Origin: an uncultured Arcobacteraceae bacterium
GTDB lineage: Bacteria; Campylobacterota; Campylobacteria; Campylobacterales; Arcobacteraceae
Direction of reading: 5' to 3'
DNA length: 64,000 nucleotides
NCBI GenBank assembly: GCA_964633845.1
Contig: CAZWLA010000001.1
Location: 31,300 to 95,299, forward strand
A program made the translations under genes and the position numbers. Below, one piece after another: positions 3,615 to 61,849 of this stretch. Within the stretch, counting starts at the first letter, position 1; every line of letters starts with the position of its first letter. Under the pieces are notes generated by a model. The model had not been told where the DNA came from. It saw only the letters and a program-made list of their open reading frames with translations, and searched no databases.

Positions 3615-3641
3615 TTGTGTAGTTAGTTGATAGCAAAATAA

Positions 3642-3668
3642 AAAGCCCCAAATATTTGGGGCTTTTTT
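3642..3668. terminator. Bidirectional intrinsic terminator (tRNA operon / thioesterase gene)
   Basis: AAAGCCCCA, loop AATATT, TGGGGCTTT, followed by T-run. An A-run upstream lets it serve the convergent minus-strand gene too. Confidence 0.75.
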
Positions 3669-3686
3669 AATGCCTAATTTTAGTGA

Positions 3687-4076: not shown

Positions 4077-4143
4077 TATGAGCCTTTTATAAGTATTGTA
4101 TCTATTATACAGTAGAATGACAAAAAATTATTAGGGAATAGTC

Positions 4144-4332: not shown

Positions 4333-4783
4333 GGGAATCTTACTAATATTAGTATTATTTTCATTCATTGAGGCAAAGGATAAGATATATTTTTTACCAG
4401 AAGATGGTAAAAAAGCTTCAAAGGATATAATAAAACTTTTTGATACTAGCAATAAAAGTATTGATATTGCTATGTATAATTTTAAATATAATAAATTTAT
4501 CAAAGCATTAAAAAGGGCATCAAAAAGAGATATTCAAATAGATCTATATCTTGATAAAGTAAAATCCAAAAAGTCTAAAATAGATTTTATAAAATATAAA
4601 ACATTTGATAAAAAGCTTCATATAAAAGCTGCTATTTTTGATAACAATACAGTCGTATTTGGAAGTGCAAACTGGAAAAAAGAGTCGTTTAAAGAAAATT
4701 TTGAGGTAATATATATTACTGATGATAAGAAAATAGTTAAGAAATTTAAAAAAATATTTAAAAAATTAAAAGAAAATAATTAA
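4313..4783 (+). CDS. Secreted phospholipase D-family (Nuc-like) nuclease
   Basis: 156 aa with an N-terminal signal peptide. Single HKD motif: HIKAAIFD followed by GSANW. Confidence 0.75.
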   Translation: MPQYLSRGILLILVLFSFIEAKDKIYFLPEDGKKASKDIIKLFDTSNKSIDIAMYNFKYNKFIKALKRASKRDIQIDLYLDKVKSKKSKIDFIKYKTFDKKLHIKAAIFDNNTVVFGSANWKKESFKENFEVIYITDDKKIVKKFKKIFKKLKENN

Positions 4784-4792
4784 GGAGTAATT

Positions 4793-5992
4793 ATGTTAAG
4801 TATAGCAGTTATGGGGTATTGTATATATTTTTTAGTTTCAGTATATACATCTTTTATGCAAATATCATATGTAAAGGATGCAAAAAAACAAAAAGCAGTT
4901 ATTTTGGATGAATCAAAATTTGAAGAAGCAGGAAGTTATGCAGTTGAAAGTCAAAGAGTTGCTATGGCAACAACAATATATGACTTTGCATTATTTTTTA
5001 TCTGGATTGGTTTTGGTTTACAGTTTTTAGATAGTGTTACAGTTACATTAGTAGGATGGCAAAAGGCAGTTGTGTTTATTGATCTATTTATAATTATAAA
5101 TTGGATTTTAGGCTTACCATTTGAGCTTTATAGTACATTTAAGTTAGATAAAAAATATGGCTTTTCTAATATGACACCATCTTTATATATTAAAGACACT
5201 ATCAAAACAGGAATGCTATTTTTAATATTTGGAAGTGCAGTGATAGCAGCTATTAGTTTAATCATTGAAAATTTTGAATCATGGTGGATATATGGATTTA
5301 TATTTATTTTTGCCGTTATATTAGTGATAAATATGGTTTATCCTATTGTTAGAGATAAGATGTTTGATAAGTTTGAAAAATTAAAAGATGTAGAACTTGA
5401 AGCTAAAATAGAAAAATTACTTGATGAGGTTGGATTTAAGTCTAGTGGCGTATTTAGTGTAGATGCATCAAAAAGAGATAATAGATTAAATGCATACTTT
5501 GGTGGTCTTGGCTCTACAAAAAGGGTAGTATTATTTGATACACTAGTACAAAAATTATCTCATGATGAGCTTTTAGCAGTACTAGGACATGAATTAGGTC
5601 ATTTTAAAAATGGTGATATTTTAAAAAATATTGGTATTATGGGTGTAGTTATGTTTATATTCTTTGCAATATTTGGAAATCTTCCAGATGAGTTGTTTTT
5701 ACAAATGCATCTATCAAATGAACCATATGCAATTATATTAGTGTTTATGATGTTTAGTCCAATATTATCATTCTTTTTAATGCCATTAATATCATTAATT
5801 AGTAGACATAATGAATATGCAGCCGATGAGTTTGGGTCTAATCTAAGTAGTAAGGATGATCTTGTAAATGCACTTTTAAAGTTAGCAAATGAAAATAAAT
5901 CATTTCCATTATCACATCCAATATACATATTTTTTTATTATTCTCATCCACCATTAGTGGAAAGATTAAAGGAGTTAGATTACAAAATGTAA
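4793..5992 (+). CDS. M48 family (Ste24/HtpX-like) integral-membrane zinc metalloprotease
   Basis: 399 aa with multiple TM segments. HELGHF zinc motif plus downstream EYAADEF. Confidence 0.85.
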   Translation: MLSIAVMGYCIYFLVSVYTSFMQISYVKDAKKQKAVILDESKFEEAGSYAVESQRVAMATTIYDFALFFIWIGFGLQFLDSVTVTLVGWQKAVVFIDLFIIINWILGLPFELYSTFKLDKKYGFSNMTPSLYIKDTIKTGMLFLIFGSAVIAAISLIIENFESWWIYGFIFIFAVILVINMVYPIVRDKMFDKFEKLKDVELEAKIEKLLDEVGFKSSGVFSVDASKRDNRLNAYFGGLGSTKRVVLFDTLVQKLSHDELLAVLGHELGHFKNGDILKNIGIMGVVMFIFFAIFGNLPDELFLQMHLSNEPYAIILVFMMFSPILSFFLMPLISLISRHNEYAADEFGSNLSSKDDLVNALLKLANENKSFPLSHPIYIFFYYSHPPLVERLKELDYKM

Positions 5993-5996
5993 TCTA
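5976..5996. terminator. Stem-loop spanning both stop codons of the convergent M48 / rimM pair
   Basis: TAGATTACA, AAA, TGTAATCTA (9-bp stem). It contains the M48 TAA (5990-5992) and the rimM stop complement (5994-5996). No U-tract. Confidence 0.4.
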
Positions 5997-6521
5997 GCTA
6001 TTTTCTAATATTTCAATAGCTTTTGAAGTTAATATAGTTTTTGCAGTAGTATCAACGCTTATGATATATTTATCAAGATATGGAATCATAAATGTTTTTG
6101 GTAAATCTTTTTGAATTAAGTCTTTAGTAGTAGCCACTTCAAGATAATCAGTATCACCATATCTATGTATATCTTTTACATCTCCTAGTATAGTTCCATT
6201 ATCAATAATTGTACTATTTATAATATCAAACCAGAAGTATTGTGTTTTTGATAAACTACATAGTTCTTTTGAATCTTCAGGCGTTGTAAAAACTTCTTTA
6301 TTGATTAGCTTTTTTGCTATATCACAATTATTAAAATTTTTAAACTTTACGATAGATCTTTTTTGATTAAAGTGCTCTATGGTAACTGTAGTATTGTTGG
6401 ATAGTGTAAAAGTTGTACCAGTTTTAAATTGCTCTGGGAAGTCTGTATCTAGGTGAAGTTTTAATTCGCCATGAAGTCCAACCGTTTTACCGATCTTTGC
6501 AATATAAATTTTATTTTGCAT
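5994..6521 (-). CDS. rimM: 16S rRNA processing protein RimM
   Basis: 175 aa. IAKIGKTVGLHGELKL N-terminus and PRC-barrel C-terminus. It sits in the conserved rpsP-KH-rimM position. Confidence 0.85.
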   Translation of the reverse strand: MQNKIYIAKIGKTVGLHGELKLHLDTDFPEQFKTGTTFTLSNNTTVTIEHFNQKRSIVKFKNFNNCDIAKKLINKEVFTTPEDSKELCSLSKTQYFWFDIINSTIIDNGTILGDVKDIHRYGDTDYLEVATTKDLIQKDLPKTFMIPYLDKYIISVDTTAKTILTSKAIEILENS

Positions 6522-6750
6522 TTATTTGGATTTTATAAGATATACCATCTTTTGCTTTACAACCATTTATTACAGTTTTAATAGCATTAATCATATTTCC
6601 ATTTTTACCAATAAGCTTACCAATATCATCTTGGTGAGCAGTTACTGTAATAAGTGCAAATGTTTCATTGTCATGCGCTATATCTACAGTAATATCGTCA
6701 GGATTAGCAACAATTAATTGTGCATAATCCTTGACAAATTGAGTAATCAT
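6511..6750 (-). CDS. KH-domain RNA-binding protein (YlqC/UPF0109 family)
   Basis: 79 aa. GKLIGKNGNMINAIKT contains the GXXG KH loop. It sits between rpsP and rimM. Confidence 0.85.
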   Translation of the reverse strand: MITQFVKDYAQLIVANPDDITVDIAHDNETFALITVTAHQDDIGKLIGKNGNMINAIKTVINGCKAKDGISYKIQINAK

Positions 6751-6756
6751 CTGAGA

Positions 6757-6984
6757 TTATTTTCCAGTGATTTTTTTAACTTTGCTACTCATTTGAGCAC
6801 CAACACTTAACCAGTGGTCAAGTCTATCTTCATCAATTTTAAGTACCTTTGGCTCAACTACTGGGTTGTAGTATCCAATTGATTCGATCCAACCTGAATC
6901 TCTTCTTTTTCTACTATCTGTAACTACGATTCTGTAAAATGGCTTTTTCTTTCTACCCATTCTTGTAAGTCTAATTGTTGTCAT
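6757..6984 (-). CDS. rpsP: 30S ribosomal protein S16
   Basis: 75 aa, [41 protein letters not shown]. Confidence 0.95.
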
Positions 6985-7070
6985 TGTCTATCCTTTTTTA
7001 TTTTTTACTTTTGGTGTAAAGTGATAAAATGAACCAATCTCATCTTACCACTTAACACTAAGTTTTTGAT

Positions 7071-8441
7071 CTATCTACCAAGTCCTGGTGGCATACCAGC
7101 TGGCATTCCTGCACCTGCATCACCCATTTGTGATAACATCTGTTGCATACCTTTGCCACCTTTTCCTGATAGCTTTTTTGCCATCTTTGCAGCATTTTTA
7201 AATTGTTTAAGTATCTTATTTACTTGTACTTCTGATAGTCCTGCACCATTAGCTAATCTTCTTTTTCTACTTAAATTGATAATAGATGGAGTTTCTCTCT
7301 CTTTTGGTGTCATTGAAGATATTAAAGCTTTAATTCTTACTATTTCACCTGAGTTTTCAAGATCCATATCTCCAAGTTGTCCAGCCATTTTTCCCATACC
7401 TGGAATCATTGACATAATTGACTTCATAGAGCCTAATTTTTTCATCATCTCAAGCTGATCTAAAAAGTCATTAAAGTTAAATTCACCTTTTTTGATCTTT
7501 TTAGTAACCTCTTTTGCCTTTTTTTCATCAATTACAGCAGATGTTTTCTCAGCAAGACCTTCAATATCTCCCGCACCCATTAATCTAGATACGATTCTAT
7601 CTGGAATAAATACTTCAAGGTCTGGCATCTTTTCACCAGTACCTACAAATCTTAATGGTACTTCAACTTGATTTGCAATAGATAGTGCAACACCACCTTT
7701 TGTATCACCATCAAATTTAGTTAAGATAACACCATCAATACCAATTTTTTCTTTAAATGATGTTGCTGTTTTTGTAGCATCATGACCTGTAAGTGCATCT
7801 GCTACATAAAAGATCTCATCTGGATTAACTGCAGACTTTATATCTTTAAGTTGTGACATAAGTTCATCATCAATTGCTAGACGACCAGCTGTATCTACAA
7901 GTAGTACATCATAAAGTCCATCTTGAGCTTTCTTTTTAGCAGCAAGTGCAATTTTTACTGGATCACTTTCATTATCATCAAAGTAAATATCAACTTCAAT
8001 TTGTTCACCAATTTGTTTTAATTGTTCAACTGCAGCTAATCTTTGTAAATCTGCAGCAGCAACTAAAACTTTTTTCTTCTTTTGTTTAAGATTTAAAGCT
8101 AGTTTACCTGTTGTTGTTGTTTTACCACTACCTTGTAATCCAGTCATTAAAATAGTTGTTAGTGGTGTTGATGCGTATACAAAACCTTGGTTTCCAGAAG
8201 TTGTTAAAATAGTAGTTAAGTTTTTTTGTAATGCTTTTAGAAAACTATCTTGACCAATACCATTTTCTTTTGTATCTGATTCTATAGCTGTAACTAATTG
8301 TTTTGTAGTTTTATGGTGTACATCTGATTTTAAAAGTGATTTTCTAAGCTCAGTTGTTGCTTTTTTTAGTGCGCTAGCATCATCTTGATGTCTAATTTTA
8401 TTTACAACACTTTTAAAGCCGCCCGTTAATACTTCAAACAA
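7071..8441 (-). CDS. ffh: Signal recognition particle protein Ffh
   Basis: 456 aa. GLQGSGKTTT P-loop, DTAGR, and TKFDGD (a close variant of the SRP GTPase TKLDG box). Met-rich M domain (MSMIPGMGKM), GMPPGLGR tail. Confidence 0.95.
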   Translation of the reverse strand: MFEVLTGGFKSVVNKIRHQDDASALKKATTELRKSLLKSDVHHKTTKQLVTAIESDTKENGIGQDSFLKALQKNLTTILTTSGNQGFVYASTPLTTILMTGLQGSGKTTTTGKLALNLKQKKKKVLVAAADLQRLAAVEQLKQIGEQIEVDIYFDDNESDPVKIALAAKKKAQDGLYDVLLVDTAGRLAIDDELMSQLKDIKSAVNPDEIFYVADALTGHDATKTATSFKEKIGIDGVILTKFDGDTKGGVALSIANQVEVPLRFVGTGEKMPDLEVFIPDRIVSRLMGAGDIEGLAEKTSAVIDEKKAKEVTKKIKKGEFNFNDFLDQLEMMKKLGSMKSIMSMIPGMGKMAGQLGDMDLENSGEIVRIKALISSMTPKERETPSIINLSRKRRLANGAGLSEVQVNKILKQFKNAAKMAKKLSGKGGKGMQQMLSQMGDAGAGMPAGMPPGLGR

Positions 8442-8597
8442 TTAATCTTCTCCTATAATTTTAAGTTTGGGATTATATATTAAAGTTGCTTGATTTAAAC
8501 TTAATGTAAGTTTTGAATATTCATAAACCCCTTGTCTAAGGGATTGTTAAATAATTTTATCTTAAAATATACTTAAAATACACCATAAGGATTAAAG

Positions 8598-9023
8598 ATG
8601 ATACTCAATAGGTTTATATTAAGTATAGTATTCTTAACTAGTATTATATCACATCTAGGAGCTAATAGTTTAAATCTAAAACCAGCGGATGATTATGATA
8701 AAATTATTAAAGTAGCACAAGAGAGTCAAAAAAATGTTTTATTGTTTATCTATCGTGATGGATGCCCTTGGTGTAGAAAACTAAAAGAAAATACCTTTCA
8801 TGATAAAAAAGTTATAAAATATATTAATGATAACTTTATATTTGCAACAATGCCAAAAGATAATTGGACATTGCCTAGCCAATATACACCAAATATAATA
8901 CCATCAGTATTTATGATTGATTCAAAGAGTGAAAATATGATCTATTGGCACAAGGGATATATAGAAGCAGATGATATGATTAAATTATTGCAAAAAATTA
9001 ATAATATTTTAGCTGGTCAATAG
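8598..9023 (+). CDS. Exported thioredoxin-fold protein (CPWC)
   Basis: 141 aa with a signal peptide. It carries DGCPWCRKLKENTF. It is a paralog by eye of the ORFs at 56697 and 61454. Confidence 0.7.
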   Translation: MILNRFILSIVFLTSIISHLGANSLNLKPADDYDKIIKVAQESQKNVLLFIYRDGCPWCRKLKENTFHDKKVIKYINDNFIFATMPKDNWTLPSQYTPNIIPSVFMIDSKSENMIYWHKGYIEADDMIKLLQKINNILAGQ

Positions 9024-9030
9024 TTACTTA

Positions 9031-9774
9031 CTAAAATCCAAATCTGTTAAACTCTTTTGGTTCTTTAGCGATAAATGTATATCCTAGTAGCTCAGTCTTT
9101 TTAGAATGTAAAAGCATTCTATTTGTATGAGATGAAGTTTTACCATATTGTGCATCACCTAAAATAGGGTATTTTATACTAGCAAGGTGAACTCTAATTT
9201 GGTGTGTTCTACCATGCTCTATTATAATTTTAATTTTAGATTTATTACCCTCTATAAACATAGGAATTATAGTAGTTTTTGCAGGTTTACCTATCTCTAA
9301 ATCAATTTTACTTCTAGCAACTTTACCTTTGTGTGTGATAATTGGTTGGTCTATTACCTCTTCTTCTGCAACTTTACCTTCTACAATAGCTACATATTCT
9401 TTATAAACTTTATTTTGTTTAAATTCTTTTATAGCCTTTCTTCTAAAATCTTCATTTTTAGCAAATAGCATAACACCACTTGTTTCTTTATCAAGTCTAT
9501 TTAGAAGCATTGCATGTGGAAATGATTTACTTACATGTTCGGCAGTTTCAAAAGCTGGTTTGTCTACTGCAATAATATCATCATCTTCAAATATTACTTT
9601 AGTTATTTGTGCTTGTTGAACTTTAAATATAGTTGTGTCACTAATCTCTCCACGTGCGATAGTTATTTTTCTACCACCTACACTTACTAGACCTTTGTCT
9701 ATTAATTCTTTTGCCTTTGAGTTTGAAATATTTTCTTGAATTGCTACAAGTTTATATGCTTTTTCTCGTGCCAT
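9031..9774 (-). CDS. RluA-family pseudouridine synthase with S4 domain
   Basis: 247 aa. S4-like N-terminus, catalytic LNRLDKETSGVMLFAK, and HQIRVHL. Confidence 0.85.
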   Translation of the reverse strand: MAREKAYKLVAIQENISNSKAKELIDKGLVSVGGRKITIARGEISDTTIFKVQQAQITKVIFEDDDIIAVDKPAFETAEHVSKSFPHAMLLNRLDKETSGVMLFAKNEDFRRKAIKEFKQNKVYKEYVAIVEGKVAEEEVIDQPIITHKGKVARSKIDLEIGKPAKTTIIPMFIEGNKSKIKIIIEHGRTHQIRVHLASIKYPILGDAQYGKTSSHTNRMLLHSKKTELLGYTFIAKEPKEFNRFGF

Positions 9775-51238: not shown

Positions 51239-51285
51239 TAATAATTTTATACTTCCACTTGAAATCTATCAGGAGGATTAATTTA

Positions 51286-51849
51286 ATGAAAAAAACAATG
51301 ATTTTATCATCTCTTTTAAGTGTATCTCTTTTAGCTGCAGACTATAGTAGTGTAATTGAATCACCAGATGCAACAGCGATGATTAAAAAAGATTTATTGA
51401 AACCAGCTACAGCGTATGATATGCCAAAAAGTTGTATTTCAACAGATCCGGATGTAATTGCTAGAGGTGCATTTATGTTTCATAATTTAAATGGTAAAAA
51501 AGCAAAAGGTAAATTACCAAAAGGTTTAGCTAAGAAGCAAATGAAGCCAGGTAAAACTTACTTGCCAGGAGACAAAATACCACATAAACAATACGGAAAT
51601 TGCGTAGCATGTCACAATATTGAAGGTGCTAAAGGTGGTGGAAATGTTGGTCCAGATTTAACAGGATATAAAGCTATGTTTATTGACTCTGGTATAAGAG
51701 ACAATAAGTTTGTATTCCAAAAGATTGCAGATCCAAGAGTTGATAATCCAGAAACTACAATGACAATTAACTTAACAACAAAATTATTTACAACAAGAGA
51801 GATATGTGATATCACTTCATATATTGTATCTGAGAAAAAGGGAAAATAG
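51286..51849 (+). CDS. soxX: Monohaem cytochrome c SoxX
   Basis: The track ORF starts at a TTG at 51259. The ATG at 51286 follows AGGAGG and begins the signal peptide MKKTMILSSLLSVSLLA. Motif CVACHNIEGAKGGGNVGPDL. Confidence 0.85.
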   Translation: MKKTMILSSLLSVSLLAADYSSVIESPDATAMIKKDLLKPATAYDMPKSCISTDPDVIARGAFMFHNLNGKKAKGKLPKGLAKKQMKPGKTYLPGDKIPHKQYGNCVACHNIEGAKGGGNVGPDLTGYKAMFIDSGIRDNKFVFQKIADPRVDNPETTMTINLTTKLFTTREICDITSYIVSEKKGK

Positions 51850-52317
51850 ATGGAAAGAAGAAAATTTTTACAAACATTAGGTGCTACAGCAGTAGTTACT
51901 ACTATGGTACCAACAGTTAGTTTTGCAGGTGCTGAAAAACCAACTAGTCCAAATGCGATTTCATATAAAGCTGCAGTAGATGCTATTACTGGTGGAAAAG
52001 AAGCGACAACATCGTCAAAAGTAAAATTAAAAGCTCCAGAGATTGCAGAAAATGGTGCAGTTGTACCAGTTACAGCTACAGTAGAAAGTGCTATGACTGA
52101 TTCTGATTATGTAAAAGCTATCCATATTTTAACTAGTAAAAATGGAAACTCTAGATCAATTAGTGCATACTTAACACCTGCAAATGGAAAAGCAATGCTA
52201 TCAACTAGAATTAAATTAGGAGCAACTCAAGAAGTATCTGCTGTTGCTGAATTAAGTGATGGTTCATTTGTAATTGCATCTCAAAGTGTAAAAGTAACAA
52301 TTGGTGGATGTGGTTGA
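51850..52317 (+). CDS. soxY: Sulfur carrier protein SoxY
   Basis: 155 aa. Tat signal ERRKFLQTLGA. C-terminal carrier arm ends VKVTIGGCG-stop. Confidence 0.92.
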   Translation: MERRKFLQTLGATAVVTTMVPTVSFAGAEKPTSPNAISYKAAVDAITGGKEATTSSKVKLKAPEIAENGAVVPVTATVESAMTDSDYVKAIHILTSKNGNSRSISAYLTPANGKAMLSTRIKLGATQEVSAVAELSDGSFVIASQSVKVTIGGCG

Positions 52318-52367
52318 TCCACTCCCTTTATTAAGCAAAATATAAAAAGAAAATAAAAGGATACAAA

Positions 52368-52700
52368 ATGGGAAGAAAATCATTAATTAAAATTAAGCCA
52401 AAAAAATATAAAGCTGGTGATGTAGTAAAAGTAAGTTTCATGATTATGCATGATATGGAAACAGGTCTAAGAAAAGATAAAAAAACTAAAAAAATAGTAC
52501 CAATGGATTATATTTCAGATTTAAAATTTGAATATAATGGAAATACATTTACAACAATGAAAACTTGGGAAACACTATCTGTAAACCCTGTTGTAAGTAC
52601 ATATATGAAAGTGGATGGTAAAGGTAAAATTAATGTTACTTATACTGAAAGCAATGGTGCAACTGGATCTAAATCTAAAAAGATTAAACCAAAAAAATAA
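52368..52700 (+). CDS. soxZ: SoxZ
   Basis: 110 aa. It has no signal peptide, consistent with export as a SoxYZ complex. Ig-like beta pattern, positioned after soxY. Confidence 0.88.
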   Translation: MGRKSLIKIKPKKYKAGDVVKVSFMIMHDMETGLRKDKKTKKIVPMDYISDLKFEYNGNTFTTMKTWETLSVNPVVSTYMKVDGKGKINVTYTESNGATGSKSKKIKPKK

Positions 52701-52709
52701 GGATAATTC

Positions 52710-53480
52710 ATGAAAACAGGAATTAAATTGGCGTTGTCTGTAGCTCTTGTATCAACACTATCTTTTGGTGGTGATCAGTTTGCAATGAGTGATGCAGATA
52801 GAGCGATGTATGCTGAGATGTTAGAAAATAATCCAGCAGATATTATGGTTGGAAATGGTGAAGAACTTCTAGCTCAATTAGGCGGAGATGAAGCACTTGC
52901 AAAGTATTTAGGTGTATCTGAAGATGATTTAGCTGGATTTATTGCAGGTTTTCCAAGATATATCAAAAAGTTTGATAGAGTTGTAGATGTAAGTCAAATG
53001 CTGCAAGCTATGATGCATGATGCTGGTAAAAAGCCATACAAGTTAAAAAGTTCAAATATGTTTGATATGAGTTCATATGTGAAATCAATAGCAAATGGTG
53101 AGCCAAGTAATATTGATGTAAATGCAAATCCTCAGATGAAAGAGATGTATGCACTTGGAAAGAAAACATTTGAGCAAAAAAGAGGTGGAAGAGGGCTTGC
53201 ATGTCTATCGTGTCATGCTCCTTCTGTAATTGGTACGGTTCTAAGAACTCAACCTTTACCAGATTTAAGCAATAAGGGTGTGGCAGTAGCTGCAACATGG
53301 CCAGCATATAGAATGACAAAGTCATCACTTAGAACTCTTCAAAGAAGATTCCAAGGTTGTATGAAAAATGCACTTCTAAAAGTAATACCTCTTGGTTCAA
53401 AAGAGATGGTAGCACTTGAAGTATACTTAACTGAACAAGCTAAAGGGACTGAAATAGCTATCCCTGGACTTAAGAGATAG
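52710..53480 (+). CDS. soxA: Cytochrome c SoxA (monohaem type)
   Basis: 256 aa. Signal peptide, single CLSCHA motif, and the conserved Cys in RRFQGCMKN. Confidence 0.88.
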   Translation: MKTGIKLALSVALVSTLSFGGDQFAMSDADRAMYAEMLENNPADIMVGNGEELLAQLGGDEALAKYLGVSEDDLAGFIAGFPRYIKKFDRVVDVSQMLQAMMHDAGKKPYKLKSSNMFDMSSYVKSIANGEPSNIDVNANPQMKEMYALGKKTFEQKRGGRGLACLSCHAPSVIGTVLRTQPLPDLSNKGVAVAATWPAYRMTKSSLRTLQRRFQGCMKNALLKVIPLGSKEMVALEVYLTEQAKGTEIAIPGLKR

Positions 53481-53489
53481 GGGCATAAA

Positions 53490-55253
53490 GTGGATATTTC
53501 AAGAAGAGACTTTATGCATATTGCAGCAATTCTAGGAATTGGTGCAGCTACAAATGGATATGCTGGAGGTATTAAAACGCCTAATCAGGTTTCATTAAAA
53601 GATATATATGATTTTAAAGCAAAAGGTAACTTCTCATTATTACATATGTGTGATCTGCATGCTCATATTAAGCCACTATATTGGAGAGAGCCATCAACAC
53701 TGATCTCTGCTCCAAATCTTGTAGGAACTCCAGGATTCTTATGTGGTGAAGCATTTGCAAAGCATTATGGTCTAGAGCCATCAAGCTTAGATGCATATTT
53801 TGATACTCATGTTGATTTTGAATCTTTAGCTAAAAAGTTTGGAAAAATGGGTGGAATCGCTCATATCAAAACTGTTTTAAATAAGATTAGAGATGAAAGA
53901 GGTGAAGACAATGTACTTTTCCTTGATTCTGGTGATACTTGGCAGGGTACTGGTGTCGCATTAAAGACTAAAGGTGAAGCGATTGTAAAAGCTCAAAATT
54001 ACCTTGGTGTAGATGTGATGGTTGGTCACTGGGAATTTACTTATGGTAAAGAGAGAGTTAAAGAATTAATAGAGATGCTTGATGCTAAATTTATTTCTCA
54101 AAATGTAGTTGGGAATGATCCATTTGCTGATGAGTTTGAAGAGCTTATTTTTGAACCATATACGATTCAAGAAAAAGGTGGAGCAAAGATTGGTATTATT
54201 GGTCAATCATTCCCATTTACATCTACTGCAAACCCAAAAGAGTTTACTGAGGGTTGGAGTTTTGGACTAAGACTTGATACTTTACAAGAGTATATTGATG
54301 AGCTTAGAAATGAGCATAAAGTTGATTGTGTTGTTGTATTGTCGCATGATGGATTTAGTGTAGACCAAGAAGTTGCTAAAAAAGTAAATGGTATTGACTT
54401 TATTTTAAGTGGACATACTCATGATCCTTCGCCTGAACCAATTATAGTAAATGATACTGTAATTGTAATTGCGGGTAGTCACGGTAAATATGTTGGTAGA
54501 TTAGATGTAGATGCATCAAATGGTAAAGTAAATGGATATGAGTATAAACTTATTCCAATTGCATCAAATATGATTCCTGCTGATCCAGCTGGTGTAAAAC
54601 TTGTAGATGAGCTATACGCTCCATTTGAAAAAGAGTTTAATGAAGTTTTAGGTCAAACTAAAAATATTCTTTATAAAAGAGATACATTCTTCTCTACATT
54701 TGATCAGCTTATCAATGATGCAATCATGGATGAGATGAAGTGTGATATATCATTTACTCCAGGATATAGATGGGGAACTACTGTATTAGCAGGTGATGAT
54801 GTACTAATGGACAATGTATATGAGATGTGTGGTATCACATATCCAGATGTTTATACATTTGATCTAAAAGGTGCAAAGATTGCAAACCTTTTAGAAGATA
54901 TTGCTGATAATGTATTTAATGCAAATCCACTTTTACAACAAGGTGGAGATATGAGTAGACTAGGTGGAGTTACATATAGTATAGCTGTAGCAGCTGAATC
55001 TGGAAAAAGAATTTCAAATCTAATGATTGGTGGTAAGCCAATTGATTTAGATAAGACATATTCTGTGTCATCTTGGGGTGGAAACTTGCAAAAAGCAGGT
55101 GAAAATCTCCAAGAAGACAAGATAAGGCCTGTTTATGATATTACTAGAGATTATATCAGAAGACAAAAAGTTATTGATGTAAGTAACGAAGGTAATGTTA
55201 CTTTGGTTGATTATGATTGTGGATGCCCTGTAAAAGATTCAAGATCTTGCTAG
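53490..55253 (+). CDS. soxB: Thiosulfohydrolase SoxB
   Basis: 587 aa. GTG start, Tat signal SRRDFMHIAA. Dinuclear metallophosphoesterase motifs (DLHAH, GDTWQG, GHWEF, SGHTHD) and a 5'-nucleotidase-like C-domain. Confidence 0.93.
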   Translation: MDISRRDFMHIAAILGIGAATNGYAGGIKTPNQVSLKDIYDFKAKGNFSLLHMCDLHAHIKPLYWREPSTLISAPNLVGTPGFLCGEAFAKHYGLEPSSLDAYFDTHVDFESLAKKFGKMGGIAHIKTVLNKIRDERGEDNVLFLDSGDTWQGTGVALKTKGEAIVKAQNYLGVDVMVGHWEFTYGKERVKELIEMLDAKFISQNVVGNDPFADEFEELIFEPYTIQEKGGAKIGIIGQSFPFTSTANPKEFTEGWSFGLRLDTLQEYIDELRNEHKVDCVVVLSHDGFSVDQEVAKKVNGIDFILSGHTHDPSPEPIIVNDTVIVIAGSHGKYVGRLDVDASNGKVNGYEYKLIPIASNMIPADPAGVKLVDELYAPFEKEFNEVLGQTKNILYKRDTFFSTFDQLINDAIMDEMKCDISFTPGYRWGTTVLAGDDVLMDNVYEMCGITYPDVYTFDLKGAKIANLLEDIADNVFNANPLLQQGGDMSRLGGVTYSIAVAAESGKRISNLMIGGKPIDLDKTYSVSSWGGNLQKAGENLQEDKIRPVYDITRDYIRRQKVIDVSNEGNVTLVDYDCGCPVKDSRSC

Positions 55254-55355: not shown

Positions 55356-56522
55356 ATGAAAAAAACAACAATGATTAAATTAGCGACAAGTGCAGCCGCA
55401 GTATTATTAGCAACAACTTCAGCAAATGCTGGATATACAATGAAAAAACAAGTTGGTGATGCTGCAACTAAGCTTACATTCTTTGGATTCTCTCAAATTG
55501 TAGCAGGATCTGGTGATGGCTTTATCGCAGATGCAAATGACTCACAAGTAAAATTTGGAGCAGATAGATTAAGACTTGGATGGAAATATGTATCTGGACC
55601 AGTAAGAGGTAAAGTATTTTTAGACTTTAACCAAGATGCTGGTGCAAAAGGCAAAGAAGATGTTGGTGCATATAGAGTTGTAAAAGATGCATTTATAGCT
55701 TATAAATTCTCAGATGCCGCAGTTGTGAAAGCTGGTATTATTAAAACTCCTGTAGGTATGGGATTTACAATTCCTGGATGGAATTTAGATATTGTAAAAA
55801 GAGCATTTGATAAGCAACTTGCATTTGAACGAGGAAATGGTTTTATGATCTCTGGAAGAGATATGGGTATGGGTAATGATGCAAAAGTAAATGGACTTGA
55901 GATGGGTCATGAAAGACCAATGCAAGGTTGGGGTTATGATGTTATGATTGGTAACCAAACTACAAGATCAGGAGCAGTTGCTGAAAGTGATGGGGACTCA
56001 TCAAGAGGAAATGCATATATGGCAAGGGTACACTATGATAGAGGTGAAGCACTTCACTTAGAAGTATCTGGTGGTGTATCTCCAGAAGCTGCTGGAACTG
56101 CTGGAAGTGCTGATTATAAAGTATTAAATATCGGTCTTGATTCACACTTTGGTGAAGGTAAAAATATAAAAGCTGAGTACTATGATGTATCTGGTATTAA
56201 AGGTGCTGATCATGATATGGATACTTTAGCATTAACATATACGCAGTATTTAACTCCTAGTTTTGAATTTGCAATCAAAGATATCTCTGGAAATGAAAAT
56301 CAAGCAGGTACAAAAAGAGATATTAGAAATACATATGTAGGATTTAACTACTATCCAAATAAGGTATCTACAAAGATGGATAGAGGTGGAAAAAGAAAAA
56401 ATAACCAACATGTAATCAAAGTAAATTATGTTGCAGTAGCAGGTGATGCAGCAACATTTGTTGGTGCAGGTGGAACATATAAAGATGATGCAGTACTTGC
56501 AATGTACCAATTTAAATTCTAG
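55356..56522 (+). CDS. Outer-membrane beta-barrel porin
   Basis: 388 aa. Signal peptide ending ANA, alternating amphipathic strands, aromatic C-terminus YQFKF. Confidence 0.75.
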   Translation: MKKTTMIKLATSAAAVLLATTSANAGYTMKKQVGDAATKLTFFGFSQIVAGSGDGFIADANDSQVKFGADRLRLGWKYVSGPVRGKVFLDFNQDAGAKGKEDVGAYRVVKDAFIAYKFSDAAVVKAGIIKTPVGMGFTIPGWNLDIVKRAFDKQLAFERGNGFMISGRDMGMGNDAKVNGLEMGHERPMQGWGYDVMIGNQTTRSGAVAESDGDSSRGNAYMARVHYDRGEALHLEVSGGVSPEAAGTAGSADYKVLNIGLDSHFGEGKNIKAEYYDVSGIKGADHDMDTLALTYTQYLTPSFEFAIKDISGNENQAGTKRDIRNTYVGFNYYPNKVSTKMDRGGKRKNNQHVIKVNYVAVAGDAATFVGAGGTYKDDAVLAMYQFKF

Positions 56523-56539
56523 GAATTATTCCTAAAATA

Positions 56540-56568
56540 AATCAAACTACCTTTTGGGTAGTTTGATT
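56540..56568 (+). terminator. 12-bp stem-loop after the porin gene
   Basis: AATCAAACTACC, TTTTG, GGTAGTTTGATT. The downstream sequence is AT-rich but has no clean T-run. Confidence 0.45.
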
Positions 56569-56570
56569 AT

Positions 56571-56666
56571 ATAATTTATAATAAAGTCACTTATTCTTTT
56601 TTCTTTATTATTTCTTAGAGATTTCTATTTCTACAAATATATTTAAGTGGCTTTATTATAAATTAT
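56571..56666. repeat. 23-bp inverted repeat (1 mismatch) with ~50-bp spacer, upstream of the exported thiol/sulfur cluster
   Basis: ATAATTTATAATAAAGTCACTTA (56571-56593) pairs with TAAGTGGCTTTATTATAAATTAT (56644-56666). A TATAAT at 56667-56672 follows immediately, and the ATG is at 56697. Confidence 0.6.
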
Positions 56667-56696
56667 TATAATGTATCATAATCAACACAAGGGATA

Positions 56697-57071
56697 ATGA
56701 TGAGATTACTTTTTATTTTAATTTTTATTACTCTGAATGTATATGCCGTACAATGGCATACTCTTAATGAAGCACAATCTATACAAAAACAAAATTCAAA
56801 AATAATCATGCTTTATATTACAGCATCTCATTGTCCATATTGCAAAAGAATGGATAAAAATGTATTTGAAGATAGAAAAATGTCATCATGGCTTGAAAAT
56901 AGATTTATATCTGTAAAGATTGATATGGATTTTGATGATATACCTATGAATCTAAATCCAAAGATGACACCTACATTTTATTTTATATCTAAAGATGAAA
57001 AAATAATAAAAACAATACCAGGATCTTGGAAAATAGAAGATTTTAAAGATTTAACAGGAAAAATAAAATGA
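56697..57071 (+). CDS. Exported thioredoxin-fold protein (CPYC)
   Basis: 124 aa. Signal peptide and ASHCPYCKRMDKNVF. Same architecture as the ORFs at 8598 and 61454. Confidence 0.75.
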   Translation: MMRLLFILIFITLNVYAVQWHTLNEAQSIQKQNSKIIMLYITASHCPYCKRMDKNVFEDRKMSSWLENRFISVKIDMDFDDIPMNLNPKMTPTFYFISKDEKIIKTIPGSWKIEDFKDLTGKIK

Positions 57072-57511
57072 AAATATTAATTAAATTTTTTAGTATTATT
57101 ACTATACTATCAATAAGTCTATTTGCAGAAACAGAGCTTGTAGAGCCATTACCATCTATAATAGAACCAAGAAAAATAGTATTATCAATAGGAAGTGGTA
57201 AATCAGAAGATATACACCATATTTTAGGAAGTGCAAATAATATTCTTAAATTTTATGGGCCAGAAAAAGTTGAGATGGTAATAGTGGCATATTATCATGG
57301 GATTAAATCAGTAATGCTAGAAAATATGAACATTATAAAAAGAGTGAAAGCACTACAGCTTTATGATGTAGAATTTATAGCATGTGGTAATACTATGAGA
57401 ACAAAAAATATTCAAGAGCATCAATTAATAGATGATATCTCTATTGCTACAGCTGGTCTTGTAGAGATTATTGAGAGACAAAAAGCTGGATATATCAATA
57501 TAAATCCATAA
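57068..57511 (+). CDS. Exported DsrE-superfamily protein (COG1416 / MTH1491-like)
   Basis: 147 aa. Signal peptide, conserved-Cys motif FIACGNTMR, C-terminal AGLVEIIERQKAGYININP typical of this family. ATGA overlap with the previous gene. Confidence 0.65.
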   Translation: MKILIKFFSIITILSISLFAETELVEPLPSIIEPRKIVLSIGSGKSEDIHHILGSANNILKFYGPEKVEMVIVAYYHGIKSVMLENMNIIKRVKALQLYDVEFIACGNTMRTKNIQEHQLIDDISIATAGLVEIIERQKAGYININP

Positions 57512-57574
57512 TATTTCACATTTAGTTCATAAAGGCATGATAATATTCCCATATAAAAATAAGAAGGATATAAT

Positions 57575-58501
57575 ATGAAAAATATTATTTTAGCAGTGGT
57601 ATTTCTTTTAACTGCAACAGTATTAAGTGCAAAAGGTGATCTGCATCTATTTGATGTAGATAATAAAGACAAAAAAATAACTACAAAAACAATTGAACAA
57701 GCTTTTATAGATGGTGGCTTTACAATTGGTATTAATCAAAATATGAATACTCCATTTAAAAAGCAATTTGAACAAACAGATTTTCAAGTATTTACACTTA
57801 TGACTATGTATCATACAAAATTAAGTATAGACCTTGTTAATAAATATGCAGACGCAGGAGTATTTACACCAATGGGTGTTGGTATCTATCAAAAACTTAA
57901 TGATAATACATTACATGTATCTGTATTAACTGCTAAAGCACATGAAAAAATATTAGGTATTTCAAATAGTCCAATACTGCAAGAGATTGAGGCTAAGGTA
58001 TTAGCAATACTAAAAAAGGCTCTGCCAAACGCAAACTATAAACTAAGTGATAAACCGTTAGGTGAATCAAGAAAATTATTAACTAAATATGAGCTTGCAC
58101 TAGAAGAAGATGATGATGCTGATGAAATCATAGAAGAGCTTCAAATGACACTTGAGTCATCATTTAAGCCAAAAGGGTTTGTAGTTCCAAAGAAATTAAC
58201 ATTTGATATGGATTTAAATCCAGATGATAAAGATGATTCTATATATGAGTATTATATAAATTATTCTATCTGTAAGTTAGAGGTTATATATACAGTTGCA
58301 AAGACACGACCAGATGCTGCTGCATTTGCTCCATGTACAACAATGGTATATAAAAAAAGAGATGAAAATAAGATTGTTTTAGGGTTCCCATCTGTATACA
58401 ATTGGATGAGTAGTGCACTTGTAGATGATAAAGCATCTTTAGATGCTTTAATGAAAGCACAAAATGATTTTGAAGGAATACTTCAAGAGGTAACAGAATA
58501 G
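57575..58501 (+). CDS. Exported protein with two DUF302-like halves
   Basis: 308 aa with a signal peptide. Half 1: GGFTIGINQN...AGVFTPMGVGIYQKLNDNTLHVSVL. Half 2: PKGFVVPKKL...AAFAPCTTMVYKKRDENKIVLGFP. An acidic linker EEDDDADE separates them. Assignment is by eye only. Confidence 0.55.
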   Translation: MKNIILAVVFLLTATVLSAKGDLHLFDVDNKDKKITTKTIEQAFIDGGFTIGINQNMNTPFKKQFEQTDFQVFTLMTMYHTKLSIDLVNKYADAGVFTPMGVGIYQKLNDNTLHVSVLTAKAHEKILGISNSPILQEIEAKVLAILKKALPNANYKLSDKPLGESRKLLTKYELALEEDDDADEIIEELQMTLESSFKPKGFVVPKKLTFDMDLNPDDKDDSIYEYYINYSICKLEVIYTVAKTRPDAAAFAPCTTMVYKKRDENKIVLGFPSVYNWMSSALVDDKASLDALMKAQNDFEGILQEVTE

Positions 58502-58503
58502 TT

Positions 58504-58968
58504 ATGAAAAAGATTCTATTATTAATATCAATGGCATTATTTTTAAATGCCCAAGATGGTGTAAAAAAACTGGCTTTGGATTTAACAACTGGTGATATTA
58601 AAAAAATTGAGAGAAAAGTATTATCAGGGACTGTAAAGCATAAAAATTATTATGAAGGTAAGCTTGAAGAGTTGGAAGTTGCGATTGTTATTCATGGTGC
58701 TGCATATAGATTTTTTATAAAGGATCTATCATCTACACCATATAAAGATGAGAAATCACTTATAGAAGCACAAGTTGATTTGCAAAAAAGACTAAGAGCA
58801 TTAAGTGAAATATATGAGGTTGAATTTTATGCATGTGCATCTGGATTGAAAAAGCTAAAGATTGATCCTAGTAATATAGTTGATTTTGTGACACTATCCC
58901 CTACATCAACAATAGTATTGATTGATAAACAAGATGAAGGGTATGCATATATACCTATATCTGATTAA
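58504..58968 (+). CDS. Exported DsrE-superfamily protein (COG1416 / MTH1491-like), paralog of 57068
   Basis: 154 aa. Signal peptide, FYACASGLKKL conserved-Cys motif, C-terminal DEGYAYIP. Confidence 0.65.
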   Translation: MKKILLLISMALFLNAQDGVKKLALDLTTGDIKKIERKVLSGTVKHKNYYEGKLEELEVAIVIHGAAYRFFIKDLSSTPYKDEKSLIEAQVDLQKRLRALSEIYEVEFYACASGLKKLKIDPSNIVDFVTLSPTSTIVLIDKQDEGYAYIPISD

Positions 58969-58977
58969 GGAACCAAT

Positions 58978-59427
58978 ATGAAGAAATTTTTTTTAAGTAT
59001 TTTATTTATTAGTACACTGCTAGTAGCTTCAAATACACATAAAGATAAGCTATTAGAAGAAGCAAAAAAAGAAGCAGGTGAAATAAGTCCAGCTATTTTA
59101 AAAAAAATGATTGACAAAGAAGAAGCTGTAGTAATGCTTGATGTTAGAGAGAGTGAGCAGCGAGCTGAAGGACAAATATATGCTGATGACACATATTCAA
59201 TTACAAGAGGAAATCTTGAGTTTTATGTAGGAAATAAAATCAAAGATAAAAATATAGTAATTGTTACATATTGTAGGGGTGGAAGTAGAGGTGCATTAGC
59301 TGCACAAACACTTAGACGCTTAGGATATAAAAATGCTACAAATCTTAAAGGGGGATTGAAGGCTTGGGCAAAGGCTGGTTATCCAATTGAAACAGGCCTT
59401 GGTATTATTAATCTAGCAAAAGAATAA
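58978..59427 (+). CDS. Exported single-domain rhodanese (sulfurtransferase)
   Basis: 149 aa. Signal peptide and active-site loop VTYCRGGSRGALAA (CxxGxR). Confidence 0.8.
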   Translation: MKKFFLSILFISTLLVASNTHKDKLLEEAKKEAGEISPAILKKMIDKEEAVVMLDVRESEQRAEGQIYADDTYSITRGNLEFYVGNKIKDKNIVIVTYCRGGSRGALAAQTLRRLGYKNATNLKGGLKAWAKAGYPIETGLGIINLAKE

Positions 59428-59438
59428 GGAATTAAATT

Positions 59439-59702
59439 ATGAATAGATTTATACAAAATTCTATAATAGTTGTATCTGCTTTAGTTTTTACTTCGTGTGC
59501 AAATATTGAGATGGGATTTGAAGAAGATAGCCCATTTTATTCTGCTCCAAATAAAGAAATAATAGAGGCTAGAGAGGATAGCCAATTTACTAAAAATGTT
59601 ATTAATAGAAAACATGATAAACTATCAACAATAAATATTAGAAAAACAAATAATAACGAGGAAAATGAAACTACATTTTATTATGAATTTGTAGAGGAGT
59701 AA
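59439..59702 (+). CDS. Small lipoprotein, hypothetical
   Basis: 87 aa. Lipobox VFTSC. No recognisable domain. Confidence 0.5.
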   Translation: MNRFIQNSIIVVSALVFTSCANIEMGFEEDSPFYSAPNKEIIEAREDSQFTKNVINRKHDKLSTINIRKTNNNEENETTFYYEFVEE

Positions 59703-59733
59703 TCTTTAGTTTATATTGTAAAAAGGGATAAAA

Positions 59734-61452
59734 TTGATTTATAAAAGATTGTTAGTCTTATTGGTATTTTTAAGTTCATTAGTAAATGCCTCAAATAGTT
59801 TTTTAATGCCAGATCAGGCTTTTAAAACTTCACTAAATACAACAAAAGATACAATTGTATTTAATCTAGAATTAGCAGATTCTATATATATTTATGATGA
59901 GCAATTAGTAATTAATATTATACAAAATGATAAAACAACTGATATTACAAAACAATTAAATATACCTAAATCTCAAGAATATCATGATACTCAAGTGCAC
60001 TTTGGAATATTAAATATAAAAGTTCCTAGTATTTTAATTCAACAAATCACAAACAATAATGATGCTACAGTTGAGTTTAATTTTCAAGGATGTTCAAAAG
60101 CTGGTCTTTGTTATCAGCCCATGACAAAAAGCATTGAATTTAAAGGTGAAAAAGTTGCTGTACTTAAACCAGTCAAGGAAATAAAAAGTGAATCAGGATT
60201 AATAGTAGATACATTTAGTAATGGAAGTATATTTTTGGTACTACTTACATTCTTTGGATTTGGATTGCTACTGGCACTAACACCTTGTGTATTCCCTATG
60301 ATACCTATTTTATCTAGTATTATTGTATCTCATTCTACGAAAACTGGTAAAGAGATGGATGCTATGCAAGGATTAAAACTTTCATTTGTTTATGTATTAG
60401 CTATGTCTGTTGCTTATACAGTAGCTGGTATTATAGCTGGTTTATTTGGAGCAAACTTACAAGCTGCATTACAAAATCCATATGTACTAGTGTCATTTGC
60501 TGCTATGTTTGTAGCACTTGCTTTTTCAATGTTTGGTTATTATGAAATATCTATACCTACAACTTGGCAAACAAAGCTTGATAAATTATCACATGGTCAA
60601 GATGAAAATAAAGGCTATATGTCTGTAGCTGTCATGGGATTCTTATCAGCACTTATTGTTGGACCTTGTGTGGCACCACCACTAGCAGGTGCTTTAGTGT
60701 ATATTGGTCAAACAGGTGATGCACTACTTGGAGGAGCAGCACTATTTGTGATGAGTATGGGTATGGGAGCACCATTACTTTTAGTTGGAGCAGGAGCTGG
60801 TAAATATATGCCAAAACCTGGAGGATGGATGGATACGGTATCTAAAGTATTTGGTGTAGTGATGCTAGGTGTTGCTATTTGGATGCTTGAAAGAATTATC
60901 CCTATTGGGTTTACATTTATGCTTTGGTCATTACTGTTCTTTGGAGCTGGTATATACTTATTAAGAGCAGTGCATATGATTATATTTAAGATATTTGCCA
61001 CTTTATTAATTTTAATTGGTATTATTTTTGGTATTGGAATTGCTACAAAAGCTACAAATATTTTAAATCCTTTAGAAAATGTGATTGGTGAGAAAGTAGT
61101 GCATCTTGAATTTAAAAGAGTAAAAAGTGTAAAAGGGCTAGATGAGATTATTGCAAACTCTACACAGCCAATTATGCTTGATTTCTATGCTGATTGGTGT
61201 ATTAGCTGTAAAGAGATGGAACACGATACATTTAGCAATAAGAAAGTACAAGATAAGTTAAAAGGTTTTATTTTACTACAAGTTGATACAACAGCAAATA
61301 GTGATGAAGATAAAGCATTATTAAAAAAGTTTAATCTATTTGGACCTCCAGGGATTATTTTCTGGAAAGACAAAAAAGAGTTGAAAAATATTACAACAAT
61401 TGGATATAAAAGTCCTGAAGAGTTCTTAGAGATAATGGGACAAGAGTTTTAA
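59734..61452 (+). CDS. dsbD: Thiol:disulfide interchange protein DsbD (full length: alpha, TM and gamma domains)
   Basis: 572 aa. TTG start after AAAGGGA. Alpha-domain cysteines in GCSKAGLCYQP, TM cysteines LTPCVFPM and GPCVAPPLA, C-terminal thioredoxin domain YADWCISCKEME. Confidence 0.88.
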   Translation: MIYKRLLVLLVFLSSLVNASNSFLMPDQAFKTSLNTTKDTIVFNLELADSIYIYDEQLVINIIQNDKTTDITKQLNIPKSQEYHDTQVHFGILNIKVPSILIQQITNNNDATVEFNFQGCSKAGLCYQPMTKSIEFKGEKVAVLKPVKEIKSESGLIVDTFSNGSIFLVLLTFFGFGLLLALTPCVFPMIPILSSIIVSHSTKTGKEMDAMQGLKLSFVYVLAMSVAYTVAGIIAGLFGANLQAALQNPYVLVSFAAMFVALAFSMFGYYEISIPTTWQTKLDKLSHGQDENKGYMSVAVMGFLSALIVGPCVAPPLAGALVYIGQTGDALLGGAALFVMSMGMGAPLLLVGAGAGKYMPKPGGWMDTVSKVFGVVMLGVAIWMLERIIPIGFTFMLWSLLFFGAGIYLLRAVHMIIFKIFATLLILIGIIFGIGIATKATNILNPLENVIGEKVVHLEFKRVKSVKGLDEIIANSTQPIMLDFYADWCISCKEMEHDTFSNKKVQDKLKGFILLQVDTTANSDEDKALLKKFNLFGPPGIIFWKDKKELKNITTIGYKSPEEFLEIMGQEF

Positions 61453-61453
61453 T

Positions 61454-61849
61454 ATGTTGAAAAGTGTTTTAGTTAGTATATTATTTGTATCAACAGTTTT
61501 TGCTGGATCTATTAATTGGTCAAAAGACAATTTAGATGATACAATTAGTAGTACAAAAAATAAAAAGCAGAAAATTATAATGGCATATTTTTGGCAAGAA
61601 GGTTGTAATGCTTGTGAATATATGAGTGATAGAGTATTTGCAGAAGATGAGGTATCTGCATTTATAAATGAAAATTTTATACCATATAAAACAGATAAAT
61701 TAACATTTGATTATCCTGTATTTGCTTTTCCTGCTATATATTTTATTGGTGAAGATGAGCAAGAATTAGGGGAACCAATAATGGGTGCTAGAAATGCAGA
61801 TGAGTTTATGTTCATGATTGAAGAGATAAAAGAACAGTTTTCTAAATAG
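61454..61849 (+). CDS. Exported thioredoxin-fold protein (CNAC)
   Basis: 131 aa. Signal peptide and QEGCNACEYMSDRVF. It starts 2 nt after the dsbD stop. Confidence 0.72.
   Translation: MLKSVLVSILFVSTVFAGSINWSKDNLDDTISSTKNKKQKIIMAYFWQEGCNACEYMSDRVFAEDEVSAFINENFIPYKTDKLTFDYPVFAFPAIYFIGEDEQELGEPIMGARNADEFMFMIEEIKEQFSK

Follow-up and report, generated by a model that had tools for sequence, protein, structure and literature searches.

A putatively exported DsrE-like and tandem DUF302 module beside the Sox genes of Campylobacterota: a candidate handler of the sulfur left on SoxY

The stretch of DNA analyzed here (the window; 64,000 nucleotides of contig CAZWLA010000001.1, from an uncultured Arcobacteraceae bacterium) carries a set of thiosulfate-oxidation (sox) genes followed by genes for two predicted secreted DsrE-like proteins, DsrE_A and DsrE_B, and for a predicted secreted protein of 308 amino acids (aa) that comprises two DUF302 domains, referred to below as the double-DUF302 protein. 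These genes belong to a widely conserved, unstudied add-on to the Sox genes of sulfur-oxidizing Campylobacterota, which most likely handles the sulfur atom left on SoxY. Positions 56697 to 61849 hold eight plus-strand genes separated by intergenic gaps of −4 to 63 nt, with the stop of trx1 overlapping the start of dsrE_A, and they follow a terminator-like hairpin at 56540–56568, 3′ of a porin gene. We take these genes, with moderate confidence, to be one tightly packed operon of exported Sox accessory proteins. DsrE_A, putatively secreted and with a single cysteine, and the likewise secreted double-DUF302 protein make up its conserved core. The folds and families of the proteins, their conserved export signals and minimal cysteine content, the gene order shared by two phyla, and the phyletic distribution are results of the analysis; the chemical steps and any physical contact between the proteins that are proposed below are inferred. 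In kind, the module would be a Sox accessory and a cysteine relay relocated to the periplasm.

Gene order was compared by annotating 80 species-level loci against the window proteins. The recurring order is soxXYZAB-(porin)-soxH-trx-dsrE_A-doubleDUF302-[dsrE_B]-[rhodanese]-[dsbD-trx], and soxB lies upstream on the same strand in 42 of the 45 loci with enough flank. Co-location with soxXYZAB or soxYZ is thus conserved across species, which marks the genes as a Sox accessory set. In 61/70 loci, the double-DUF302 gene is immediately preceded by dsrE_A, whereas dsrE_B immediately follows it in 23/73, and the full triplet is found in 18/65. DsrE_A and the double-DUF302 protein are therefore the conserved pair, and DsrE_B is an optional extension. 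An earlier note on this DNA had proposed that the two DsrE-like paralogs bracket the double-DUF302 protein as a dedicated complex; since DsrE_B is optional, an obligate bracket is unsupported, and an obligate A-B heteromer like DsrEFH was rejected on the ground that most loci have no dsrE_B. SoxYZ and DsrE_A accompany the double-DUF302 protein more consistently. The link to sulfur metabolism drawn in the same note emerged as strong, both from the upstream soxB and from a sox cluster with the same parts in the Aquificota.

In that cluster, from Sulfurihydrogenibium, the order is soxX-trx-soxY-soxZ-soxA-soxB-DUF302-porin-DsrE-soxH-DsrE-DUF302. The two DUF302 genes are separate and encode secreted, single-domain proteins, one with a cysteine in the motif VCKL and the other cysteine-free, and both of these unfused proteins, when compared with the N- and C-terminal halves of the 308-aa protein, align weakly, each to the core of the C-terminal half. 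The A-type DsrE motif reads VCRNTMRF. The same parts list in Sulfurihydrogenibium indicates that the accessory set accompanies sox in a second phylum. The cluster spans positions 134–9049 of the locus L112, from a Sulfurihydrogenibium azorense metagenome-assembled genome, and genes for a HAD hydrolase and a TehB-like methyltransferase follow it.

The three open reading frames (ORFs) and all the motifs quoted for them in the earlier note were recovered at the coordinates given there, namely, EFIACGN and AGYININP in DsrE_A, EFYACAS and EGYAYIPISD in DsrE_B, and GVFTPMGVGIYQ (from residue 95) and AFAPCTTMVYKK (from residue 250) in the 308-aa ORF. Both small proteins pass the Pfam DsrE (PF02635) cut-off of 22.7 bits (32.2 bits for DsrE_A), and their mutual identity of 28% over 71 residues (E = 1e-10) bears out their description as DsrE-like paralogs. 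By sequence, DsrE_A matches ST0148 and MTH1491 at ∼5e-7, with its cysteine aligned to theirs; a PDB sequence search with DsrE_B returned zero matches. The AlphaFold2 (AF2) model of DsrE_A (predicted local distance difference test [pLDDT], 90) superimposes on MTH1491 (1L1S) with a TM-score of 0.94 and a root mean square deviation (rmsd) of 1.2 Å, and so DsrE_A, for which the model was examined, has a DsrE-type alpha/beta fold. Its sole cysteine, C106 (codon 57383–57385), lies in the invariant motif ACGNTMRTK, aligns with the ST0148 cysteine, and in the model sits where strand 102–106 ends and helix 107–112 begins. The sole cysteine of DsrE_B is C111 (codon 58834–58836). The DsrE_A model begins with a helix (residues 2–19) and a low-confidence linker, with the fold starting at residue 35; the linker corresponds to a conserved tail of the mature protein with the consensus DTEFAEPKPSIDNPR.

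DsrE_A and DsrE_B are COG1416-type DsrE-like proteins and not DsrE/TusD proper, given the strong MTH1491 match of DsrE_A, the weaker match to DsrEFH/TusBCD, and low TusC/DsrF scores, the best NCBIfam hit, TusC/DsrF, reaching 17.8 bits where the cut-off is 94.15. With MTH1491 and ST0148 (2PD2), which represent the COG1416 branch, DsrE_A shares the fold (TM-score, 0.93 to 0.94; rmsd, 1.2 to 1.4 Å), the place of the conserved cysteine where a strand passes into a helix, and a C-terminal G-[YW]-x-x-I motif. Those two are leaderless archaeal proteins of 108 to 113 aa, whereas DsrE_A and DsrE_B have predicted signal peptides and are encoded inside sox clusters, and DsrE_A has in addition the conserved N-terminal tail of 15 residues. 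DsrEFH (2HY5) and TusBCD (2D1P), cytoplasmic sulfur-relay heterohexamers, belong to the same superfamily and use a single active cysteine to carry a persulfide, with rhodanese-type partners, a logic that the window parts would follow. They resemble the DsrE_A model far less (TM-score, 0.5 to 0.63 query-normalized and 0.62 to 0.72 target-normalized), and the window operon, predicted to act in the periplasm, lacks DsrF- and DsrH-like genes as well as a TusA, DsrC, or tRNA partner. Homologs of DsrE_B are also present in Sulfurovum, Sulfuricurvum, and Sulfurihydrogenibium.

The 308-aa ORF is a true tandem DUF302 protein, as judged from its predicted structure. The AF2 model (pLDDT, 84.5; predicted TM-score, 0.83) runs through the order E-H-E-H-E-H-H-E-E-H-H twice, and the top PDB entries in Foldseek are the DUF302 structures 1Q9U, 1J3M (TT1751), and 7TJ1, with TM-scores of 0.66 to 0.81 over ∼130 residues in an aligned half that is unspecified. 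The N-terminal half of the wider-family profile matches single-domain ORFs in related genomes, three of which are DUF302 by Pfam (two at ∼2e-13 and the third at 4e-7), and in other family members the Pfam match itself sits in the N-terminal half. Direct comparison of the N-terminal half (∼aa 21–160) with the C-terminal half (∼aa 165–308) is weak in both BLASTP (E = 0.002 over 21 residues) and hhalign (E = 0.0015 over 31 columns), and the assignment therefore rests on structure and transitive homology; searches of PDB sequences with the protein or the family profile gave nothing meaningful. The earlier suggestion that both halves resemble DUF302, fused in one chain, thus agrees with the repeated topology, the Foldseek matches, and the N-half profile matches, while the profile search that it recommended for each half succeeded for one only: Pfam DUF302 (PF03625) is matched at residues 227–271, with 23.8 bits against a cut-off of 23, and the N-terminal half alone has zero Pfam matches.

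The only cysteines of the protein, C233 (58271–58273, in SICKL) and C254 (58334–58336, in FAPC), are both in the C-terminal half. Aligning 1Q9U LEVCNPQEAARVLNENLLVGYFLPCKLVVYQ with the window sequence YSICKLEVIYTVAKTRPDAAAFAPCTTMVYKK pairs them with the two 1Q9U cysteines (VCNP...LPCK), which identifies them, at the level of sequence, as the two canonical DUF302 cysteines, both lost from the N-terminal half. Known DUF302 examples with the same fold are single-domain proteins of ∼130 aa, whereas the window protein joins two in one secreted chain, with only the second retaining the cysteines. The mature N terminus, GDLH, is invariant. Both cysteines are invariant in the window-type subfamily (25/25 sequences); in the wider family, they are mostly kept or lost together, with P0158, in which the first is kept and the second absent, as an exception. 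Close homologs number more than 1,000 when clustered at 90% identity, and those with names belong to Sulfurimonas, Sulfurimonadaceae, "Helicobacteraceae," and Campylobacterota metagenome bins. The family is small, 1.84 billion proteins yielding 185 clusters at 50% identity, and most members are ∼300 aa long. Four members (P0141, P0143, P0151, and P0173) have 900 to 1,345 aa and several DUF302 repeats, one of them with a GldD-lipoprotein-like segment; the fusion partners in the longer members (540 to 1,345 aa) are such further repeats and the one GldD-like segment and gave no functional clue.

DsrE_A, DsrE_B, and the double-DUF302 protein are predicted to be Sec-exported to the periplasm, with signal peptides at aa 1–20, 1–16, and 1–19, respectively. 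These calls use heuristic sequence features conserved over homologs: 69 A-type and 29 B-type homologs retain the n-h-c architecture, with N-terminal K/R, a hydrophobic core, and an A|E/D/Q site, although their residues vary, in line with the exported DsrE fold that the earlier note had described. Leu is frequent at position -3 of the predicted cleavage sites, so that the N-terminal segments might be uncleaved anchors or the proteins might be cytoplasmic, either of which would rule out a soluble periplasmic relay. This is highly improbable in view of the conserved architecture, the lipobox that replaces the signal peptide in one double-DUF302 paralog, and the neighboring genes, all of which encode exported proteins (Sox, DsbD, and porin). 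Moreover, the two other DsrE-family proteins of the same genome begin directly with the fold and have no N-terminal extension, and an anchored form would face the periplasm anyway. DUF302 and DsrE-family proteins are neither always cytoplasmic nor always free-standing, and the statement that these families are normally cytoplasmic was too strong, as secreted DUF302 and DsrE-like ORFs occur in published sox clusters (PMC5037610, PMC11034169, PMC10045233).

The association with Sox extends beyond the window. The host genome (1.5 Mb in 94 contigs, a low-GC Campylobacterota assembly from seawater) encodes four double-DUF302 paralogs; three lie next to a soxYZ pair, and each of the three soxYZ pairs of the genome has a paralog nearby. 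The sox core of the window lacks soxCD, but the genome does not, because contig C20 (7288–23096, outside the window) carries two tandem soxC-soxD-soxY-soxZ sets, the identities having been confirmed for one of them. After the first set come a gene for a SoxH-like metallohydrolase and, next, one for a paralog; immediately behind the second set is the gene for a paralog that is a lipoprotein. Each set is flanked by an FccB-like flavoprotein. Genes for an SQR-like protein of 491 aa, a small cytochrome c, and a secreted thioredoxin are interleaved with these sets. The fourth paralog (C35:303-1211, minus strand) is at a contig end, and its closest relative, in genome G038, follows soxCDYZ. Arrangements among relatives include soxCDYZ-dDUF302 and, in Sulfurovum loci, fccB-soxY-soxZ-dDUF302.

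Among 151 genomes of the order, the double-DUF302 protein was present in 40, SoxZ in 61, and both in 33 (odds ratio, 14; p = 3e-10, uncorrected for phylogeny), and 36 of the 63 double-DUF302 genes lie within 10 kb of a soxZ. The distribution follows the state of SoxCD. The protein was found in 17/20 genomes with SoxZ but without SoxC and in 12/15 with SoxC and at least two SoxZ (split systems) but in only 4/26 with SoxC and a single SoxZ (one-cluster systems). Presence and absence both occur inside several families; therefore, the pattern does not reflect one inherited event. A general role for the module as a bridge from SoxY1 to SoxCD/SoxY2 was rejected, since many of its carriers lack SoxC: 17 of the 33 genomes with SoxZ and the protein and, as we read the tabulated data, roughly half of those with the soxXYZAB-linked type. 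In one genome (G166:C1:1763639-1772349), three double-DUF302 genes with identical scores lie exactly 3,883 bp apart and ∼7 kb from soxZ, which looks like a recent tandem triplication of a multigene unit.

The fate of the sulfane sulfur on SoxY decides between direct formation of sulfate and deposition of elemental sulfur, and Sulfurimonas, Sulfurovum, and related bacteria are the main removers of sulfide at vents and oxic-anoxic interfaces. How SoxY loses its sulfane when SoxCD is missing or serves a different carrier is a standing question in bacterial sulfur oxidation. In the window, a single cysteine occurs in each of DsrE_A, DsrE_B, and the rhodanese, a conserved pair in the double-DUF302 protein, and a CxxC motif in both thioredoxins. 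This composition points to a persulfide relay with a supply of reductant and, combined with the phyletic pattern, favors as the best reading a periplasmic cysteine relay that removes sulfane sulfur from SoxY and is kept reduced by thioredoxin and DsbD, although we would put its chances at about even. SoxXA would place thiosulfate on SoxY, and SoxB would take off sulfate, with the sulfane sulfur staying on the SoxY cysteine; without SoxCD acting on the same SoxYZ, this sulfur would have to come off before the carrier could cycle. The double-DUF302 protein, as an intramolecular pseudo-dimer of one cysteine-pair half and one degenerate half, may dock on SoxYZ and, with DsrE_A, accept the sulfane sulfur as a persulfide or polysulfide, with DsrE_B and the rhodanese also taking part where present. 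The sulfur would then be handed to a second SoxYZ/SoxCD set, if any, or else end as zero-valent sulfur, and the carrier would be regenerated. The carrier cysteines would stay reduced through DsbD and the two thioredoxins, a task that falls to SoxV and SoxS/SoxW in Paracoccus.

A broader version of this proposal, in which truncated or split Sox systems discharge the sulfane on SoxY through a long-missing periplasmic outlet formed by the tandem DUF302 protein and the secreted DsrE-like protein that accompanies it, is tentative and on balance doubtful. If true, it would assign a first function to DUF302, for which several structures have been solved: that of a sulfur acceptor docking on SoxYZ, in a cysteine-to-cysteine persulfide relay outside the cytoplasm. 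It would also explain SoxY recycling and S0 formation in organisms with soxXYZAB only, or the supply of a second SoxYZ/SoxCD set.

Several observations weigh against the relay. Cysteine-less paralogs exist (P0147 and C35:303-1211, the latter with SIIRF and YAPFS in place of the cysteine motifs), and covalent carriage of sulfur therefore cannot be the sole role of the family. The sample is 151 genomes of one order, and the co-occurrence statistics ignore phylogeny. The sequencing runs found to contain the window stretch were seawater metagenome DNA only, with no RNA runs among them. Finally, 7 of the 40 genomes with the double-DUF302 protein lack SoxZ. In the SoxZ-less genomes of one family (L107, 7479–9229; L108, 6268–8009), the gene is always paired with one for an unrelated secreted protein of ∼260 aa from an unknown family, and the pairs sit among housekeeping genes, forming a subfamily not linked to Sox. 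The SoxZ-less genomes could mean that the module merely lies near sox and serves general envelope stress or the handling of metalloid (As/Se/Te) thiols, as might the weak NCBIfam similarity to selenoprotein-type rhodanese and DsbD families, the DUF302 gene in a sqr/arsenic operon of Synechocystis (PMC5061849), and the TehB-like gene after the Aquificota cluster. We consider this very unlikely, because soxB lies so regularly upstream, a paralog accompanies each soxYZ, the association with SoxZ is strong, and the NCBIfam matches are far below their cut-offs.

Thiol-redox maintenance alone is a further alternative, in which the DsrE-like and double-DUF302 proteins would serve the DsbD/thioredoxin pathway as adaptors or substrates and would re-reduce inactivated SoxY (mixed disulfides and SoxY-SoxY dimers), like SoxV-SoxS of Paracoccus, passing no sulfur. 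A thioredoxin gene (trx1 in the window) lies upstream of dsrE_A in 58/80 loci, dsbD and a thioredoxin gene lie downstream in 14/80 and in the window, and the DUF302 cysteine pair could serve as a redox pair. The single cysteines of DsrE_A and DsrE_B are, however, typical of persulfide carriers and not of disulfide reductases, and a rhodanese is encoded in the operon. The enrichment where SoxCD is absent or on another SoxYZ also argues for a sulfane problem rather than general redox upkeep; one-cluster Sox systems need SoxY reactivation too, and most of them do without the protein. On this evidence, we regard redox maintenance as unlikely.

Alternatively, the double-DUF302 protein could bind hydrophobic zero-valent sulfur or polysulfide noncovalently and escort it through the periplasm from the porin to SoxYZ, with the DsrE-like proteins activating the bound sulfur. 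The retention of cysteine-less paralogs beside soxCDYZ and the porin in the same clusters would fit such an escort, but the invariance of both cysteines in the window-type subfamily and the neighboring dsrE of Sulfurovum indicum, with 2.2 times as much transcript on thiosulfate as on S0 (PMC10045233), make it rather improbable.

Periplasmic parts of these kinds are familiar from other bacteria: SoxV, SoxS, and SoxW of Paracoccus and the periplasmic rhodaneses SoxL (Allochromatium) and Sud (Wolinella). The window likewise combines DsbD, secreted CxxC thioredoxins, and a secreted single-domain rhodanese with sox genes. By analogy, DsbD may import reducing power into the periplasm as SoxV does, and Trx1 may correspond to SoxW/SoxS; the window DsbD has all three domains, whereas Paracoccus SoxV is CcdA-like, and the likeness is drawn at the level of gene type. 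Members of the module have been listed in sox clusters before. In Acidithiobacillia lacking soxCD, a DUF302 gene lies between soxA and soxB (PMC5037610), a remark that the SoxC phyletic pattern described above matches. Sulfitobacter sox clusters contain DsrE and DUF302 ORFs (PMC11034169), and in Sulfurovum indicum, dsrE-soxW-soxH1 beside soxABXYZ are 2.2- to 3.8-fold higher on thiosulfate, the DsrE being mislabeled as a thioredoxin (PMC10045233); this transcript induction of the neighboring dsrE is the one experimental pointer to a part in thiosulfate or sulfur oxidation. The same gene families thus occur in the same company in these three reports, which list them without analysis; a DUF302 gene is also found in the Synechocystis sqr operon (PMC5061849). 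Public annotations read "DsrE family protein" and "DUF302 domain-containing protein," and in the literature searched, we found no account of the family of tandem DUF302 proteins, of the secreted MTH1491-like protein paired with it, of a paralog beside each soxYZ, or of the relation to SoxCD. An exported, single-cysteine set in these very clusters, enriched in genomes that face the sulfane problem, makes an old question approachable through a short list of testable proteins.

The features of the locus are collected in Table 1. The sox core is preceded by a two-component system and scored 78.3 (SoxX), 159.2 (SoxY), 99.5 (SoxZ), 216.1 (SoxA), and 795.3 (SoxB) bits against the NCBIfam models.

Table 1. 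Features of the sox locus and the accessory genes in the window
Feature	Position	Strand	Basis
soxX, soxY, soxZ, soxA, soxB (thiosulfate-oxidation core)	51259..55253	+	NCBIfam equivalogs, all above cut-off
Outer-membrane porin, Porin_O_P-like	55356..56522	+	Pfam PF07396, 29.9 bits
Trx1, secreted thioredoxin-like, CxxC C46/C49	56697..57071	+	Pfam Thioredoxin_2, 46.7 bits
DsrE_A, secreted MTH1491/COG1416-type DsrE-like	57068..57511	+	Pfam DsrE; AF2 model
Secreted tandem (double) DUF302 protein, 308 aa	57575..58501	+	Pfam DUF302; AF2 model; Foldseek
DsrE_B, second secreted DsrE-family paralog	58504..58968	+	Pfam DsrE, 47.4 bits
Secreted single-domain rhodanese, sole cysteine C99 in CRGGSRG	58978..59427	+	Pfam Rhodanese, 54.7 bits
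Predicted lipoprotein, 87 aa, lipobox ..FTSC, C20; between rhodanese and dsbD	59439..59702	+	
Full-length DsbD: N-terminal, transmembrane, and thioredoxin domains	59734..61452	+	NCBIfam DsbD, 514.9 bits (cut-off, 330); Pfam
Trx2, second secreted thioredoxin-like, CxxC C51/C54	61454..61849	+	Pfam Thioredoxin_2, 28 bits

The 87-aa lipoprotein had zero Pfam or NCBIfam family matches. A porin gene occupies the same position in 14/80 related loci and is also present in the Aquificota cluster, and the rhodanese gene is found in 5/80. Between the porin gene and trx1 (56523–56696), the window lacks soxH, which is present in 53/80 related loci; a SoxH-like gene, with TIGR04558 and TIGR04559 as its best NCBIfam matches, both below cut-off, lies instead in the soxCDYZ cluster on contig C20.

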